From Patescibacteria group bacterium (GTDB lineage: Bacteria > Patescibacteriota > Patescibacteriia > UBA2591 > UBA4787), in contig JAQUSN010000001.1 in assembly GCA_028715115.1 (NCBI GenBank), positions 191,067-255,066 on the forward strand: a stretch of DNA of 64,000 bases, given 5' to 3'. Position 1 is the first letter of the stretch. Each line of letters begins with the position of its first letter. The notes under the pieces were generated by a model, which worked only from the letters and a program-made list of their open reading frames with translations, did not search any database and was not told where the DNA came from. The position numbers and the translations under genes were made by a program. Shown here piece by piece: positions 7,376 to 29,682 of the stretch.

Positions 7376-9193
7376 ATGAAAATATTATTGAAAAATTTTC
7401 TTATCTTTTTGATAATTTTTTTAATATTAGCTGGCGTTTTGAGTTTATTGGGATCGTCTGGCGCTAAAACCGAACAAATTTCTGTTAGCCAGTTGGTGAC
7501 CGAGGTTTCTACCGGCCAAGTAAAAACCATTGCTTTAACCGGCAACCGCCTAGACGTTGTTTTGAATAATGGCCAACGTCAATTAGCCTACAAAGGAGAT
7601 GGCGACTTTATCGCGCTCTTAAAAAATTACGGAGTCGATCAAAATAAATTAAATTCTTTTGAGTTCCAGGTAAAAAACAGTTCTGGTCAGAGCATTTGGG
7701 CCACTACGATTTTGCCGATCGGTATACCGCTTATTTTTATAATCGGTTTTTTTGTTTTTCTACAACGGCAAATGCGCGGCGCCGGCAACCAAGCTTTTAA
7801 GTTTGGCGAAAGCCAGGCCAGAGAAATAGGTCCGCTGGATAAAAAAACTAAAATCACCTTTAAGGATGTAGCCGGAGTAAGCGAGGCTAAGTCAGAATTA
7901 GGCGAAATTATTGAATTCTTAAAAAATCCCCGAAAATTCATTAATTTAGGAGCAAAAATTCCTAAGGGCGTACTTTTGGTCGGCGGTCCGGGCACGGGCA
8001 AAACCCTATTAGCTCGAGCTGTGGCTGGAGAAGCTAATGTGCCATTTTTCCATATATCCGGATCTGAATTTGTGGAAATGTTTGTCGGTGTCGGCGCTAG
8101 CCGAGTGCGCGATTTATTCCGCCGAGCTAAAAAAAATCTGCCTTGTATTATTTTTATCGACGAAATCGACGCTGTTGGCCGCCAACGCGGCGCCGGATTG
8201 GGCGGCTCACATGATGAACGAGAACAAACTTTAAACCAAATTTTAGTAGAGCTCGACGGTTTTGAACCCAACATTGGATTAGTGGTGATGGCCGCTACTA
8301 ATCGACCTGATATTTTAGATCCGGCACTACTGCGGCCCGGCCGTTTTGATCGTAAGGTTATTTTAGATATGCCGAGCATTAAAGACCGCGAAGAAATTTT
8401 AAAAATTCATAGCCAAAATAAACCCTTGGCATCGACTGTAAATCTAAAAAAAGTAGCTGAACGTACTCCTGGTTTTTCTGGCGCTGATTTATCAAATTTA
8501 ATGAACGAGGCGGCCATTTTAACCGCCCGGCGCAATAAAAACAAAATCGGCCAATTAGAAATTTTAGAAAGCATTGAAAAGGTTTTGCTCGGCCCAGAAC
8601 GTCGTAGTCGCGTTTTTAGTGAAAAAGAGCGCGAGATTAGCGCTTATCATGAAGCAGGACACGCTTTAGTGGCTCATGAACTGCCTGGTTGCGATAAAGT
8701 CCAAAAAGTTTCCATCATTTCTCGCGGCCAAGCCGGCGGTTATACTTTAATTACGCCCGAAGAAGACAAATATTTAAAAAATAAAAATGAATTTTTAGAC
8801 AACGTAGCCGGACTTTTAGGTGGATTTGTAGCCGAAGAAGAAACTTTTAAACAAACCACTACTGGTTCGAGCAGTGACCTCAAAAAAGCCACCGACCTAA
8901 TTAAAAGAATGGTTACCCAATTTGGCATGAGTGATCTTTTGGGCCCTCGAACTTTTGGCGAAAAAGAAGAACTAATTTTTCTGGGTCGCGAAATCAGCGA
9001 ACAACGTGATTATTCAGAAAAAACAGCTCAATTAATTGACGAGGAAGTGTCTAAATTAATAACTTTATGCTATAATAAAGCCAAGGAAATCGTTAAAAAC
9101 AAAAAGGCTTATTTAGAAAAAATAGCTAAATTGCTTTTAGAAAAAGAAACTTTGGAAAAAAATGAGTTTGAAAAAATATTTACTACTCCTTAA
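7376..9193 (+). CDS. ftsH: ATP-dependent zinc metalloprotease FtsH
   Basis: N-terminal TM segments, Walker A GPPGTGKT, SRH region, and zinc-binding HEAGHAL motif. The track start at 7370 is a TTG; the ATG at 7376 is more likely. Confidence 0.93.
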
Positions 9194-10221: not shown

Positions 10222-11334
10222 ATGAAATTAACAGTTCTGCAAGAAAACTTAAATAAAATTTTATCTCAACTTAGTCGTTTAACAAGCACAAAGGCGACTT
10301 TGCCAATTTTAAATAACGTTTTAATTGAAGCCGAAAAAGGAGTTTTGAAATTAAGCACGACCAATTTAGAAATAGCGATTAGTACTCAAATTAGGGCTAA
10401 AGTAGAAAGGGAGGCGAAAATAACCATTCCTTGCCAAATTTTTGCCAACTTTGTTAATTTATTAGATAAGGGTCCGATAGATATCGAGCTTTTAGAAAGC
10501 AATGAAGTTAGCTTGAAGTCAAAAAATAGCGTAACTAAAATAAAGGGCACGGTGGCCGAAGAATTTCCAATTATTCCTCAAGTAGATCATAAAAATTTTT
10601 TCAAAGTTAACGCCCTAGATTTAAAGCAAGCTCTAGATAAGGTTGCTTTTACCGTTTCGCCAAACGAAACGCGCGCTGAAATTAGTGGTGTTTTATTTTC
10701 CTTTAACCCAGAAAACGACATTTTAACCCTAGTCGGCACCGATAGTTATCGTTTAGCAGAGAAAAGTTTTAAGGTTATCGAATCTAATATTAAAGAATCG
10801 CACAGCCTAATTGTTCCGGCGCGAACAATTCAAGAATTAAGTCGGATCGTCGAAGAAAAAGGAGTAATTGAAATTTATTTTGCCGAAAATCAAGTTTTAT
10901 TCATCTATGAAGCTACAGAAATAATTTCGCGTATTATAAATGGCGAATATCCCGACTATCGGCAAATTATTCCTCAAACTTTTGCCACTCGCGCCCTAAT
11001 GGAGAAAGAAGCTCTTTTAAGGGCGGTTAAGGCTGTTAGTCTATTCACTAAAATTGGTTTAAATGACATTAATTTAAAATTCCAGGCTAGCGGCGACAAA
11101 ACCATTGTTTCTTCTTTAAATAGTCAGGTGGGCGAAAGCCAGATTGACTTAAAGGCAGAAATAAAAGGCGAAGACAATGAGATTATTTTTAATTATCGAT
11201 ATTTATTGGATGGACTTTTAAATATTGGCGGCGATGAAGTGAGTTTAAATATTGTTAATGACAATTCGGCGGCAGTTATAACCTCACCAACCGAAAAGGA
11301 CTATTTGTATTTGGTTATGCCTATTAAAAAATAA
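10222..11334 (+). CDS. dnaN: DNA polymerase III beta sliding clamp
   Basis: 370 aa. It opens MKLTVLQENL... and shows a three-domain clamp-like repeat pattern with the right length. Confidence 0.8.
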   Translation: MKLTVLQENLNKILSQLSRLTSTKATLPILNNVLIEAEKGVLKLSTTNLEIAISTQIRAKVEREAKITIPCQIFANFVNLLDKGPIDIELLESNEVSLKSKNSVTKIKGTVAEEFPIIPQVDHKNFFKVNALDLKQALDKVAFTVSPNETRAEISGVLFSFNPENDILTLVGTDSYRLAEKSFKVIESNIKESHSLIVPARTIQELSRIVEEKGVIEIYFAENQVLFIYEATEIISRIINGEYPDYRQIIPQTFATRALMEKEALLRAVKAVSLFTKIGLNDINLKFQASGDKTIVSSLNSQVGESQIDLKAEIKGEDNEIIFNYRYLLDGLLNIGGDEVSLNIVNDNSAAVITSPTEKDYLYLVMPIKK

Positions 11335-11995: not shown

Positions 11996-13036
11996 TTATC
12001 CTCCCTGTCGATCCTTGCGCAACGCCAGGGCCAGCTTCGCGATACACTCAACGGCCTCTTCGCTTAGCGTGCCCGGATTACCGACCTGTTCCAGTTCTTC
12101 GCGTAGATCGGCGATGACGAGCTGGCGCACGGCCGGGCCTTCTGTTTCGGCTACGTGCACTTCTGCAGCGCGCGCTGTCTCTCTTCGTGCCTGGACCGAC
12201 GATGCTCCTCTCTTGCCTCCGCGATTCTTAGTCGAAACGCCGGCAAGATGACCCCGCCCTCCACCATTACTGCGCCATTCTTTCTCTGGTAGGAGGCTTT
12301 GGTCAACATCCACCAGTAACGAATCTGTAACGACGCCGAGTGCTGAGGCCATGCGCTGAATGGTCTCTATTGACGGCAGGGTGCCCGACTTCTTGAAGCT
12401 GACCCAGGCTGACTGAGGCCGGGCGGCATCGGGAGATATCGCCCTACCTATTACCAGGAGAGTGATCCCTTTTTCTGTCTTGGCCTCTTCGACGTTTCGG
12501 AGAAGCGCCTTCTTTGATTTCGCCTCTCCTTCTTGCGGTTTACGGGGCATAGAGCCCTTCCTTTCGATTGATACCCTTCTTGCCTTGGTGGTCTTTGCTC
12601 TTGTGTTCGGCCTTGTGTTGGCCGCCTTCACTGTTACTGTTTGTGGGTCAGGCGGATCAGCGGCGGTAGCCGTTGGCTTTGGGTTGGTTGCATCATCTTC
12701 TTGGGCTGGCGTAGTCTTTTTGGGGTCGTGCCCATTGTGCATTATAGCGCTCGGACTAATGCCCAAGCGCTGGCAACAGGCGAGAATCTGGTTGCTGGTT
12801 AATAGGTTCCAGGCAGTATCTCTGAGCCAGCTGTGCCAGACTTCAATCGGCCTGTCAGTCCTGGGGCTAACGATAAGTCCCATGGCCGCTTCGCCATACA
12901 TTCGCCGTTCAGCGGCGTCCAAAGCGATGGCTTCTCTCTCTACTCGCGCTGCTTCAAGCCTTCTGGCCACTAGCAGTTTTTGCGCTGTTCCGTCGTGGTT
13001 ATGATGGCCCGCCGCTTCTATTGGGGCCACACTCAT
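11996..13036 (-). CDS. GC-rich islet A: 346-aa protein with a central XRE/Cro-type helix-turn-helix segment
   Basis: Clean ORF at about 58% GC in a 35% GC backbone. The segment ...SAWVSFKKSGTLPSIETIQRMASALGVVTDSLL fits the XRE HTH pattern. It has a strong SD (AAAGGAGGTGTT-ATG) and a TTGACA promoter at 13092-13120. The function of the N- and C-terminal domains is unknown. Confidence 0.6.
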   Translation of the reverse strand: MSVAPIEAAGHHNHDGTAQKLLVARRLEAARVEREAIALDAAERRMYGEAAMGLIVSPRTDRPIEVWHSWLRDTAWNLLTSNQILACCQRLGISPSAIMHNGHDPKKTTPAQEDDATNPKPTATAADPPDPQTVTVKAANTRPNTRAKTTKARRVSIERKGSMPRKPQEGEAKSKKALLRNVEEAKTEKGITLLVIGRAISPDAARPQSAWVSFKKSGTLPSIETIQRMASALGVVTDSLLVDVDQSLLPEKEWRSNGGGRGHLAGVSTKNRGGKRGASSVQARRETARAAEVHVAETEGPAVRQLVIADLREELEQVGNPGTLSEEAVECIAKLALALRKDRQGG

Positions 13037-28765: not shown

Positions 28766-29092
28766 ATAAACAACCCATGGAGGTGTCATATAGGCGCGAA
28801 AAGAGACTGCAGTATTTCCGTGGTAGTACCTCCGGACAAGGGACGTCTAAGTATAGACTCGAGACGTTCAAAACCATGTTGTTCTGCCATGGAGGCAGAG
28901 CTGAGACTTTTGCGGCCTCTTCGACAGGGCGCGGTATTGCGTCGTCCCGGCCACAACAATCTAATACCTGGTCGGCCTTGTCCCCACTGCGGAGCACTGA
29001 TTCAACTCCTCATGGAGTAAGTCCTGGGGCGGAGCCGTTTTGGCTCCGCCCTCTGTCATTACCAAGAACACAGAATTGACTTTCTGTCTTTT
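28766..29092 (+). other. GC-rich about 325-nt transcription unit D. Either a small-protein gene with an unresolved start (ORF-track candidates 28777..29079 or 28820..29020) or a structured ncRNA
   Basis: About 52% GC flanked by AT-rich DNA. A consensus promoter lies upstream. An internal GC hairpin sits at 29022-29047 and a terminator (acagaa-ttgact-ttctgt plus T7) at 29063-29092. Three overlapping ORFs with low-complexity translations. The ATGGAGG at 28777 has no canonical start 5-9 nt downstream. Confidence 0.35.
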
Positions 29093-29224
29093 TTTGTTAA
29101 AATAGTTTTAATAAAGACCTACCCGCCTATTGCCTATCCAGGAGTTAATTTTAAATAAGAATTGAAGAAAGAATATTTTTTAATTCTTAACTCGATGGGG
29201 CGGCGTTGGCAGGCGGGCCTGCTC

Positions 29225-29455
29225 GCCATTACTACGCTCAGTGGTAGAGCTCTTATATCGACAATTTTATTAATAGGCGTGCATAGCTCAGCGGCCTAAT
29301 CCAATTCTCTAAGAACTGGACGGCCCGTTCGAGTTTTTTTAAAACTCGAATTAGGGTAGAGCACGACTCTTATATCAATAAATTTTCAATATTTAGTGTC
29401 TTGAGTGCGCGTGTAGCTCAGTGGTAGAGCACCACTCTTATAGCGGTAGATTCCT
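29225..29455 (+). repeat. Three truncated or interrupted tRNA-Ile(UAU)-derived 5'-half copies (pseudo-tRNA fragments)
   Basis: 29232-29262 ctacGCTCAGTGGTAGAGCtCTTATAtcgac. 29276-29376 GGCGTGCATAGCTCAG[63-nt insert]GGTAGAGCACGACTCTTATATC. 29406-29449 GCGCGTGTAGCTCAGTGGTAGAGCACCACTCTTATAGcgg. All share the D-arm and anticodon-arm core of the intact tRNA at 29470. Confidence 0.6.
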
Positions 29456-29469
29456 ATTATTCTCTAAGT

Positions 29470-29541
29470 GGGCGCATAGCTCAGTGGTAGAGCACCACTC
29501 TTATAAAGTGGGGGTCGATGGTTCGAACCCATCTGCGCCCA
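29470..29541 (+). tRNA. tRNA-Ile (anticodon UAU, AUA-decoding type)
   Basis: GGGCGCA-TA-GCTCAGTGGTAGAGC-A-CCACT-CTTATAA-AGTGG-GGGTC-GATGGTTCGAACCCATC-TGCGCCC-A. The anticodon loop CUUAUAA carries U34-A35-U36. The acceptor stem is extended by flanking complementary ctctaagtg / cacttagag. Confidence 0.8.
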
Positions 29542-29618
29542 CTTAGAGAATAAAATAATGTTATCTACCGATATATAGGTCGCAACTTTATAAATTATTT
29601 TAATTGTAGCGACCAATA

Positions 29619-29656
29619 TAAAGTGGGGGCCTCTATTAGAACCCATCTGCGCCCAC
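29619..29656 (+). repeat. Truncated 3'-half copy of tRNA-Ile(UAU) with a replaced T-arm
   Basis: ATAAAGTGGGGGcctctattagAACCCATCTGCGCCCACTTA versus the intact ATAAAGTGGGGGTCGATGGTTCGAACCCATCTGCGCCCACTTAG. Confidence 0.6.
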
Positions 29657-29682
29657 TTATAAATTAATTATTGTTTTAAATT

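Follow-up and report, generated by a model that had tools for sequence, protein, structure and literature searches.

The window analysed here, a stretch of 64,000 nucleotides from a Patescibacteria genome, contains a tRNA-Ile(UAU) gene surrounded by partial copies of tRNA-Ile(UAU). These partial copies appear to be the outer shells of a nest, not paralogues standing side by side. It is very probable that the array was built by nested insertions, the shells of which are dead. Overall, the array is best explained, and we consider this fairly likely, as the decayed nest of a cassette that is selfish, probably driven by a nuclease, and equipped with a replacement tRNA. Homing driven by GIY-YIG nucleases is a tentative proposal for its spread, given a little less than an even chance. 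That such cassettes constitute an undescribed family of self-nesting "tRNA-in-tRNA" elements linked to minimal GIY-YIG nucleases seems about evenly balanced, with a slight leaning towards yes.

ARAGORN assigns tRNA-Ile with the anticodon tat to 29470–29542. The Rfam tRNA model RF00005 gives 75.4 bits over 29470–29541, with a canonical cloverleaf and the anticodon UAU. Both agree with an earlier annotation made from the letters alone (hereafter the sequence-only reading), which placed an intact tRNA with this anticodon at 29470–29541. The fragments were found by local alignment of the live tRNA to its surroundings. The parts of the array are as follows.

29236–29272, plus strand: F1, the oldest 5′-half remnant, GCTCAGTGGTAGAGC-TCTTATA followed by the leader remnant tcgacaatttt (alignment, repeats).
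29276–29374, plus strand: F2, a 5′ half with the acceptor strand GCGTGCA, the anticodon-stem strand CGACT and the end CTCTTATA, interrupted by a structured D-loop insert.
29295–29354, plus strand: the D-loop insert of F2, ~60 nt, with the closing stem CCTAAT/ATTAGG, two hairpins and the core CTGGACGGCCCGTTC (inverted repeat I9, comparison with locus L069).
29407–29442, plus strand: F3, the 5′ half of the layer next outside the live gene (alignment, repeat D1).
29443–29469, plus strand: leader (x) of the current cassette (inverted repeats I1 and I6, fold).
29443–51, plus strand: 5′ strand of helix P1a, GCGGTAGAT (inverted repeats, fold).
29457–69, plus strand: 5′ strand of helix P1b, TTATTCTCTAAGT (inverted repeats, fold).
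29470–29541, plus strand: the live tRNA-Ile(UAU), presumably functional, CCA not encoded (ARAGORN, Rfam).
29542–29616, plus strand: trailer (y) of the current cassette, with the P1b 3′ strand, the P1a 3′ strand, TATATA and the P2 hairpin in that order.
First part of the trailer, plus strand: 3′ strand of P1b, CACTTAGAGAATAA (inverted repeats, fold).
29563–70, plus strand: 3′ strand of P1a, ATCTACCG (inverted repeats, fold).
29578–83 and 29609–14, plus strand: P2 hairpin, GGTCGC/GCGACC (fold, repeats).
29617–29668, plus strand: F4, the 3′ half of the layer outside the live gene with a decayed trailer copy, CACTTATAAATTAA (alignment, repeats D4 at 88%, D7 and I2).

The aligned part of F1 (29236–29257) corresponds to tRNA positions 10–36, that is, the D arm and the anticodon loop. 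It lacks the acceptor, and the 5-nt anticodon-stem strand is deleted. Its leader remnant matches the leader of the outer layer at the orthologous locus L069 (fetched loci carry L numbers). The tRNA parts of F2 are 29276–29294 and 29355–29374, and the alignment of F2 to the outer 5′ half of L069 takes in the D-loop insert as well. F1 with its spacer resembles F2 with its spacer (repeat D6). F3 copies the live 5′ half and three leader nucleotides at 92%, is exact over 29 nt from 29414, and has three changes in its acceptor strand (GCGCGTG vs. GGGCGCA). The tRNA part of F4 (29617–29656) covers positions 33–73 and is an 88% copy of the live 3′ half, with a scrambled T-arm 5′ strand and a 1-nt deletion. 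F3 and F4 include a few nucleotides of leader and trailer (repeats D1, D4, and I2). These facts indicate that the layer outside the live gene is an earlier copy of the same cassette, and the acceptor changes of F3 together with the lost T arm of F4 indicate that this layer is decaying.

The 20-mer GGTAGAGCACCACTCTTATA is found three times at two or fewer mismatches, against 0.00 expected in shuffled sequence, and the 3′-half pattern has one further occurrence, again against 0.00 expected. Because the 5′ halves all end with CTCTTATA and the 3′ half starts with TATAAAG, all the breakpoints lie within the anticodon loop. No further 3′ half is present in the whole window, and no other copy of the halves or the cassette was found in the 64 kb. 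Over the array, Rfam found only the tRNA, both at the gathering threshold and at E ≤ 10.

The sequence-only reading had described three degenerate 5′ halves upstream and one 3′ half with an altered T-arm downstream; these are F1–F3 and F4. The D-loop insertion that it saw in the second copy is present, at 29295–29354 and not 29296–29358, and the hairpin that it saw inside is recovered as inverted repeat I9. The complementary flanks that it saw extending the acceptor helix are longer than it noted (20 bp, perfect). It also pointed to the recurrence of TTCTCTAAG in the copy-2 insert. (A)TTCTCTAAG is indeed present at 29304–13 and 29459–68, but by a rough estimate a repeated 10-mer in this AT-rich stretch of 600 nt is not clearly above chance.

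The inverted repeat of 29457–29476 and 29534–53 (I1) is 20 bp long and 100% complementary, acceptor stem included. When 29407–29660 is folded, helices P1a and P1b enclose the cloverleaf (z = −7.3). The live gene would be the cargo of a cassette of ~150 bp consisting of leader, tRNA and trailer, in which the leader pairs with the trailer. The current cassette would lie within the anticodon loop (between TTA and TAA of U33–A38) of an older copy of the same cassette, represented by F3 and F4. It can be supposed that this copy was once inside the still older F2 and F1, the 3′ halves of which have since been lost. Each new insertion would have displaced 5′ halves upstream and 3′ halves downstream. 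As judged from their sequences, the outer halves appear to be dead and decaying: there are mutations in the acceptor of F3, a scrambled T arm in F4, a deletion in F1 and an insert of 60 nt in F2.

Independent assemblies of the same species (L001–L004) have an identical array, so the array is not an assembly artefact. The window also matches GenBank contig JAQUBC010000010.1, from a Patescibacteria-type metagenome-assembled genome (MAG). Two Logan contigs stop inside the live tRNA, at window positions 29514 and 29517. In L002, a second MAG, F4 (7880–7934, corresponding to window 29617–29663) differs by four bases and one inserted nucleotide over a stretch of 40 nt. The 950 nt before it match the window exactly, and the contig stops just after F4. 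The F4 differences and the contig ends suggest strain heterogeneity at this locus.

A scan with one 20-mer of the 5′ half, using one genome per species, gave 55 loci, nearly all in Patescibacteria, and 54 of the 55 are tRNA-Ile(UAU) genes. As a single 20-mer finds so many, tRNA-Ile(UAU) must be ordinary and widespread in Patescibacteria. AUA accounts for 75 of 479 Ile codons in ten long open reading frames (ORFs) of the window. Neither a CAU tRNA nor an ORF with the tilS-type SGGxDS PP-loop was found within the 64-kb window, to which this search was confined. A bacterial precedent is Mycoplasma mobile, in which tRNA-Ile(UAU) reads AUA without TilS (PMC3575796). As in that species, the tRNA-Ile of the window has a UAU anticodon that is not modifiable to lysidine, and AUA codons are used; in Patescibacteria, however, the UAU tRNA looks common and not exceptional. 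The sequence-only reading had considered a recent neofunctionalisation of the tRNA to UAU. This shift is rejected: all the fragments are already UAU, UAU genes occur throughout the phylum, and the syntenic locus L088 has a plain, un-nested tRNA-Ile(UAU).

Flanking halves are seen at no fewer than 14 (≥14) of 54 species-level Patescibacteria tRNA-Ile(UAU) loci. The nest pattern, a 5′ half followed by a close second D arm, occurs at 25 metagenome loci, of which ~18 are distinct. At L005, L022, L036, L054 and others, the upstream 5′ half and the downstream 3′ half have mutually complementary acceptor and anticodon stems, and these stems differ from those of the gene between them. This indicates that one tRNA-Ile(UAU) was split in its anticodon loop by an insert with another complete one. 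At 24 loci, in silico removal of 102–141 nt at 35/36 yields a canonical outer tRNA-Ile(UAU) that is valid for ARAGORN. The same removal reveals two layers at L033. L071, L074 and L080, judged by eye, have three tRNA copies one within another.

The insert can be present or absent between otherwise identical alleles. L044 and L054 have flanks of >450 nt that are ~100% identical, and their sole difference is an insert of 102 bp between A35 and U36, present in L054 and absent from L044. L037 and L039 have, as their resident un-nested gene, a tRNA identical to the cargo of L054. A second case comes from the relatives L088, L069 and L085, which were found through the 83-aa membrane protein encoded downstream of the array. 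L088, L069 and the window have the common gene order tRNA-Ile(UAU), 83-aa gene, tRNA-Ala(UGC), methyltransferase. Within this synteny the depth of nesting varies: L088 is un-nested with one plain gene, a single layer is seen at L069, and in the window there are three or more. According to its gene list, the closest relative, P0001 (JGI 3300075153; 83-aa protein 89% identical), carries two additional genes immediately before the 83-aa gene, encoding 144 aa and 314 aa, the latter with PPDK_N; the end of the array occupies that place in the window.

L033 and L056 have shells that are 100% identical, but unrelated flanks and inner tRNAs with several differences. As far as the sequences can tell, either the horizontal movement of entire nests or co-conversion would account for this. 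L056 and L073 have hybrid halves that arose by recombination between layers. Decaying shells are visible in the window, L056, L059, L032 and L057. At L026 (4808–5068), a tRNA-Ala(CGC) lies within the D arm (between GGTAGA and GC) of another tRNA-Ala(CGC), and the insert is bordered by CCTGCCCG and CAGGCGGG; nesting is thus not confined to tRNA-Ile(UAU) or to the anticodon loop. At L020 (699–1741), an intact tRNA-Ile(UAU) is separated from a 3′ half displaced ~1 kb downstream by a 290-aa ORF without a Pfam match; this insertion at the same anticodon-loop site is larger and of a different kind.

The inserts fall into two classes. Class i consists of those of the window, L069, L085, L064, L070, L071, L073, L033 and L019. 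They have TA at both ends, which gives TATA at both junctions. Their parts are ordered as a leader that is the reverse complement of the trailer start (P1), the motif (c)gATATAT, and the short P2 hairpin before the 3′ junction. Class ii includes L054, L022, L060, L068, L077, L082 and others, with conserved GC-rich arms between CTTA and TAAAG (CTTA, then CCCGCCTGCC...GGCGGGCAGG, then TAAAG) and without duplication. The junction core TATA(A) is seen at both sides in the window and class i, and no common core is seen in class ii (CTTA, then CCCGCC...GGGCAGG, then TAAAG). The non-tRNA part of each insert is only 25–70 nt. The target, TTATAA at U33–A38, is a perfect palindrome centred on 35/36 with the anticodon stem on both sides, which makes the DNA at the target unusually symmetric.

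P1 in the nested genes of class i is 9–18 bp long and perfect (p ≤ 0.01 against shuffles), and its pairing is kept while its sequence changes. It was not found around un-nested tRNA-Ile(UAU) genes. The P2 stems differ in every element; that of L069 is set apart from that of the window by two compensatory double changes. The window, L069 and L085 have homologous trailers.

Leader and trailer have the form of the terminal inverted repeats of a miniature inverted-repeat transposable element (MITE) or an insertion sequence, with repeats of 9–18 bp, 20 bp in the window, and the arms in class ii. Unlike those elements, the class i repeats vary in sequence from element to element, which is unusual for transposase sites, no further copies are present in the 64-kb window, and target duplication is variable or absent. 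The class ii arms CCCGCCTGCC/GGCGGGCAGG were considered as a MITE signature and given up. The same GC palindromes also stand as plain terminator-like hairpins after ORFs, so the arms alone are not diagnostic. Perfect palindromes of the form CCTGCCYGCC(G)GGCRGGCAGG are found right after stop codons at L007 (2461–2480 and 6435–6453) and L070 (738–757, followed by a T-run), and share their arms with the tRNA inserts of class ii. Apparently these genomes use them as their standard terminator hairpin.

Small ORFs of ~85–100 aa matching the GIY-YIG domain PF01541 (E = 4e-14 and 1.5e-18) adjoin tRNA genes in many of the fetched loci. They lie inside nests at L085 and L051 (tRNA-Ile(UAU)) and L009 (tRNA-Cys), and abut tRNA genes at L092–L095, L024 and L039. 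The protein family has 134 relatives at E ≤ 1e-5, and the named ones are GIY-YIG nuclease family proteins of lineages of the Candidate Phyla Radiation (CPR). L085 is ordered as a tRNA-Ile(UAU) 5′ fragment with D-loop hairpins, the GIY-YIG ORF, an intact tRNA-Ile(UAU), a trailer and a 3′ half. Its intact tRNA has the same acceptor and anticodon stems as that of the window, and its right end (cgATATAT, the hairpin, and TA meeting TAAA) is also the same. L051 is similar in layout. L009 (7349–7919) has a tRNA-Cys(GCA) 5′ half, a GIY-YIG ORF, an intact identical tRNA-Cys and a 3′ half, a very fresh nest. In its outer copies the anticodon loop is interrupted directly behind G34 (after 33 tRNA nucleotides) by a double-hairpin insert of 30 nt, and the unit seems to be tandemly repeated up to the contig end.

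Other GIY-YIG elements are inserted in the D loop. L093 (1400–1830; Ile-GAU) and L095 (290–730; His, GUG) have a D-loop-truncated 5′ fragment, a two-hairpin leader (CCCGCC...GGCGGGCCCGCC...GGCGGG-GAGC), an ORF of ~85 aa and a complete tRNA of the same identity. L092 (1400–1780) has the fragment, the leader and the GIY-YIG ORF, at which the contig ends. In L094 (1500–2330; Ile-GAU) the GIY-YIG ORF runs straight into a complete tRNA, and the hairpin leader is found only in a nuclease-less copy downstream of the tRNA. At L024, L039 and L037, GIY-YIG ORFs are flanked by partial tRNA-Gly or tRNA-Phe, with a GC hairpin replacing the anticodon arm, and a diverged tRNA-Lys copy. Besides Ile(UAU), the longer forms of the insert, those with a GIY-YIG gene, are seen for Cys, His, Ile(GAU), Gly, Lys, Phe and Ala tRNAs.

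The D-loop insert of F2 is conserved in L069, in which its second hairpin is fully compensated; the neighbouring protein is ~50% identical by eye. Its core CTGGACGGCCCGTTC is similar to the leader core CTGGCGGGCCCGTC of the GIY-YIG elements of L095, L094, L085, L093 and L092, and it lies 2–3 nt from their insertion site in the D loop. A random insertion was ruled out by this conservation in a relative and by the likeness to the hairpin leader. Since its core resembles the leader core near the same position, the F2 insert is probably a nuclease-less remnant of a D-loop-inserting GIY-YIG element.

The following course can be proposed, in which the unit, its cargo and the re-invasion are shown by these loci and the mode of spread and the role of P1 are inferred. 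The insert is a discrete DNA unit, as its presence and absence between near-identical strains indicate. It brings a complete tRNA of the same identity as the interrupted gene, often identical to the resident tRNA of another lineage, and so compensates for the destruction of a single-copy essential gene. The cargo is itself a fresh target, which leads to re-invasion and to two or three layers. Full-length relatives encode the minimal GIY-YIG nuclease of ~85 aa just upstream of the cargo tRNA, so spread is probably by a break in the resident tRNA gene and repair from a cassette-bearing copy, that is, homing. The short inserts, that of the window among them, would be nuclease-less derivatives moved in trans or by recombination. 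P1 may clamp the ends of the live tRNA and allow correct folding and processing despite competing dead halves in the transcript. Alternatively, P1 might be the terminal inverted repeat of the element.

Several facts weigh against this course. No GIY-YIG gene, integrase or transposase was found in the window, and Pfam showed nothing mobile in the ORFs beside the array or in the GC-odd regions of the window. The local link to a nuclease thus comes from the homology of the cassette right end and the D-loop insert to elements elsewhere. The GIY-YIG proteins of 85 aa have no DNA-binding domain (the best structure is 1zg2, UPF0213/Slx1-like, E = 0.008), and for a bare catalytic domain sequence-specific homing is a conjecture. 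The cargo recreates the target, so a nuclease recognising the anticodon loop would also cut its own cargo, a difficulty for any simple immunity. Inner and outer sequences are the same in L009, L057, L045 and layer 1 of the window, which allele-specific homing does not predict. The junctions are heterogeneous, with TATA at both ends or no duplication, and perhaps more than one mechanism is at work. Many outer tRNAs are perfectly intact and could still be in use. Hairpins of the P2 type are individually non-significant (p = 0.02–0.5), with a hand-made Fisher combination of ~0.03 in which some of the sequences are related; P2 may be a weak, positionally recurrent feature only.

A different origin of the halves would be tyrosine-recombinase elements that recombined in the anticodon loop by means of tRNA parts in their attP, and whose bodies were later deleted, leaving half-tRNAs as scars. 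This seems unlikely. The anticodon stem-loop is reportedly a known class of integrase target, as Williams is said to have set out in 2002, and the TATA common to both class i junctions would suit such a recombination. A recombinase with PF00589 is encoded just downstream on the opposite strand in L018, L056, L074, L079 and others, and the 290-aa ORF of L020 lies between a tRNA and its displaced 3′ half. In archaea there is the precedent of a tRNA-Thr 5′ fragment displaced by a recombinase-encoding element (PMC3293823). In the window, however, no relative of PF00589 was found, and elsewhere the recombinase is equally frequent at nested and un-nested loci. The inserts are uniformly 102–141 bp with a whole tRNA, not kilobase-scale islands with a 3′ part, the class ii junctions have no common core at all, and it is implausible that many islands shrank independently to the same 120 bp. 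Viral contigs gave no match to the 5′-half 20-mer or to the nest pattern, so a phage source of the attP is not supported. Many Patescibacteria, including several MAGs of the Microgenomates group, encode the well-conserved Xer-like recombinase (PF00589; L018 7281–8000 and 11 other loci) downstream of tRNA-Ile(UAU), on the other strand, whether the tRNA gene is nested or not. This recombinase was considered as the cassette integrase, in the manner of integrons or CTX, and dropped for its equal frequency beside un-nested genes, which makes it look like plain conserved synteny. The sequence-only reading had suggested repeated duplication, recombination or integration-excision at this tRNA. Repeated events at the tRNA are upheld, but classical integration-excision is not, with no integrase in the window and no enrichment of the recombinase at nests.

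A purely local history without any mobile element, in which tandem tRNA duplication was followed by deletions and unequal crossing-over, is very improbable. Some unequal crossing-over probably happened, given the likeness of F1 with its spacer to F2 with its spacer, and the hybrid halves of L056 and L073 point the same way. But random deletions would not put all the breakpoints in the anticodon loop, both in the window and in dozens of unrelated loci. The outer halves are complementary to one another and distinct from the inner tRNA, the inner tRNA can equal that of another lineage (L054 vs. L037 and L039), and a presence/absence difference can be a clean 102 bp. The precise, recurrent junctions largely refute a local origin, as far as sequence comparison can do so. 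A scenario with a chance as slim, or slimmer by a shade, is that the inserts are a new kind of tRNA intron. The nest would be transcribed as one precursor; after release of the inner tRNA, rejoining of the outer halves would bring the yield to two or three working tRNAs. In such a compound gene, to which we give the same faint chance, P1 would direct the release of the inner tRNA, and a protein-dependent pathway would rejoin the halves and remove the D-loop hairpins, producing two or three tRNA-Ile(UAU) isodecoders. It would amount to a non-ribozyme tRNA splicing system in Bacteria. The canonical outer tRNAs after insert removal at 24 loci, the P1 pairing kept despite sequence change, the D-loop insert conserved with compensatory changes and the position 35/36, a favoured intron site in Patescibacteria tRNAs (PMC13011429), are consistent with it. 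Against these stand the 25–70 nt of non-tRNA sequence per insert, with no ribozyme and no Rfam match, and 5′ exons that end in A and not in U (...CUUA A35 in class ii and ...UAUA A37 in class i). There is no bulge-helix-bulge either: the junctions are opposite each other in one continuous helix (anticodon stem, UUA/UAA and P1), not in 3-nt bulges spaced by 4 bp. Finally, an intron has no need of a replacement tRNA, and the shells are decaying in the window, L056, L059, L032 and L057.

The self-nesting cassette resembles several known systems in part. SegB of phage T4 is a free-standing GIY-YIG homing endonuclease in a tRNA gene cluster (PMC2330249). In both systems a GIY-YIG gene lies among or beside tRNA genes, and the selfish unit shows presence/absence polymorphism; in SegB the nuclease gene is inherited with neighbouring tRNA DNA after a break in the nuclease-less allele. 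Unlike SegB, the nuclease of Patescibacteria is a minimal domain of ~85 aa without a DNA-binding module, its cleavage is putative, and the hosts are cellular genomes and not phage. The Patescibacteria element also lies inside a cloverleaf loop, carries a complete or partial replacement tRNA and is recursively nested. In the integrase-type duplication of tRNA fragments at att sites, and in the model for the disrupted tRNA-Thr of Caldiarchaeum (PMC3293823), the element likewise enters a tRNA gene, rebuilds a working copy and leaves behind a fragment that has been displaced, and the events can stack. In contrast to these, the window has no integrase, the inserts are ~120 bp and not kilobases, and a whole tRNA is put into the anticodon loop, so that both old halves are displaced and the 5′ halves pile up upstream. 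Group I introns occur at 35/36 of tRNA-Asn and tRNA-Asp in Patescibacteria, some of them with homing endonuclease genes (PMC13011429). They share with our inserts the phylum, the insertion position of class ii and the single-copy tRNA genes. Our inserts, however, have no ribozyme core (P3–P9), are 102–141 nt long (vs. usually >200) and carry a tRNA; the 5′ exon ends in A, not in a U paired with G in P1, and the interrupted gene is apparently abandoned. Insertion in a loop, a complete replacement tRNA as cargo and recursive nesting are combined in none of these nearest known systems. Neither nested tRNA genes nor cassettes of GIY-YIG and tRNA in CPR were found described in the full-text literature searched, in which not all journals are included.

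If the cassette explanation is true, selfish elements attack a single-copy essential gene and yet bring a spare, in tiny streamlined genomes where tRNA genes are mostly single-copy. Fragments of tRNAs in CPR genomes, and tRNA calls there that look odd or "missing", would find an explanation, and half-tRNAs beside a CPR tRNA gene should be annotated as the shells of a nest, not as assembly errors. tRNA genes could be replaced horizontally in this way, what is cargo in one lineage being the resident tRNA in another, and the nests would be a natural case of recursive self-insertion in which the cargo recreates the target. A role might also be found for the abundant, unexplained 85-aa GIY-YIG proteins of Patescibacteria, and compact loop-targeting nucleases and insulating helices might serve as tools.

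Upstream of the whole array, a consensus scan found a promoter-like site.

29076–29103, plus strand: TTGACT-16-TAAAAT with TG, weak, the number of such sites being that expected by chance (consensus scan).

This site is a possible start of a long precursor containing the dead halves. Just upstream of the array, 28775–29065 is a GC-rich, strongly structured stretch of ~300 nt (minimum free energy −113 kcal/mol over 335 nt) that ends in the terminator-like hairpin GGGGCGGAGCC-GTTTT-GGCTCCGCCC. The Logan annotation has a 100-aa ORF here; Pfam and Rfam gave no match, and none of the fetched loci has a homologue. The stretch might be a non-coding RNA that has escaped recognition. Elsewhere in the window, 11996–13036 is 1 kb at 57% G+C, against ~40% elsewhere, with a strong AT skew and a minus-strand ORF of 346 aa without a Pfam match. 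dnaN lies just upstream, at 10222–11334, and the GC skew changes its sign near 5–6 kb, which indicates that a replication origin is probably nearby.

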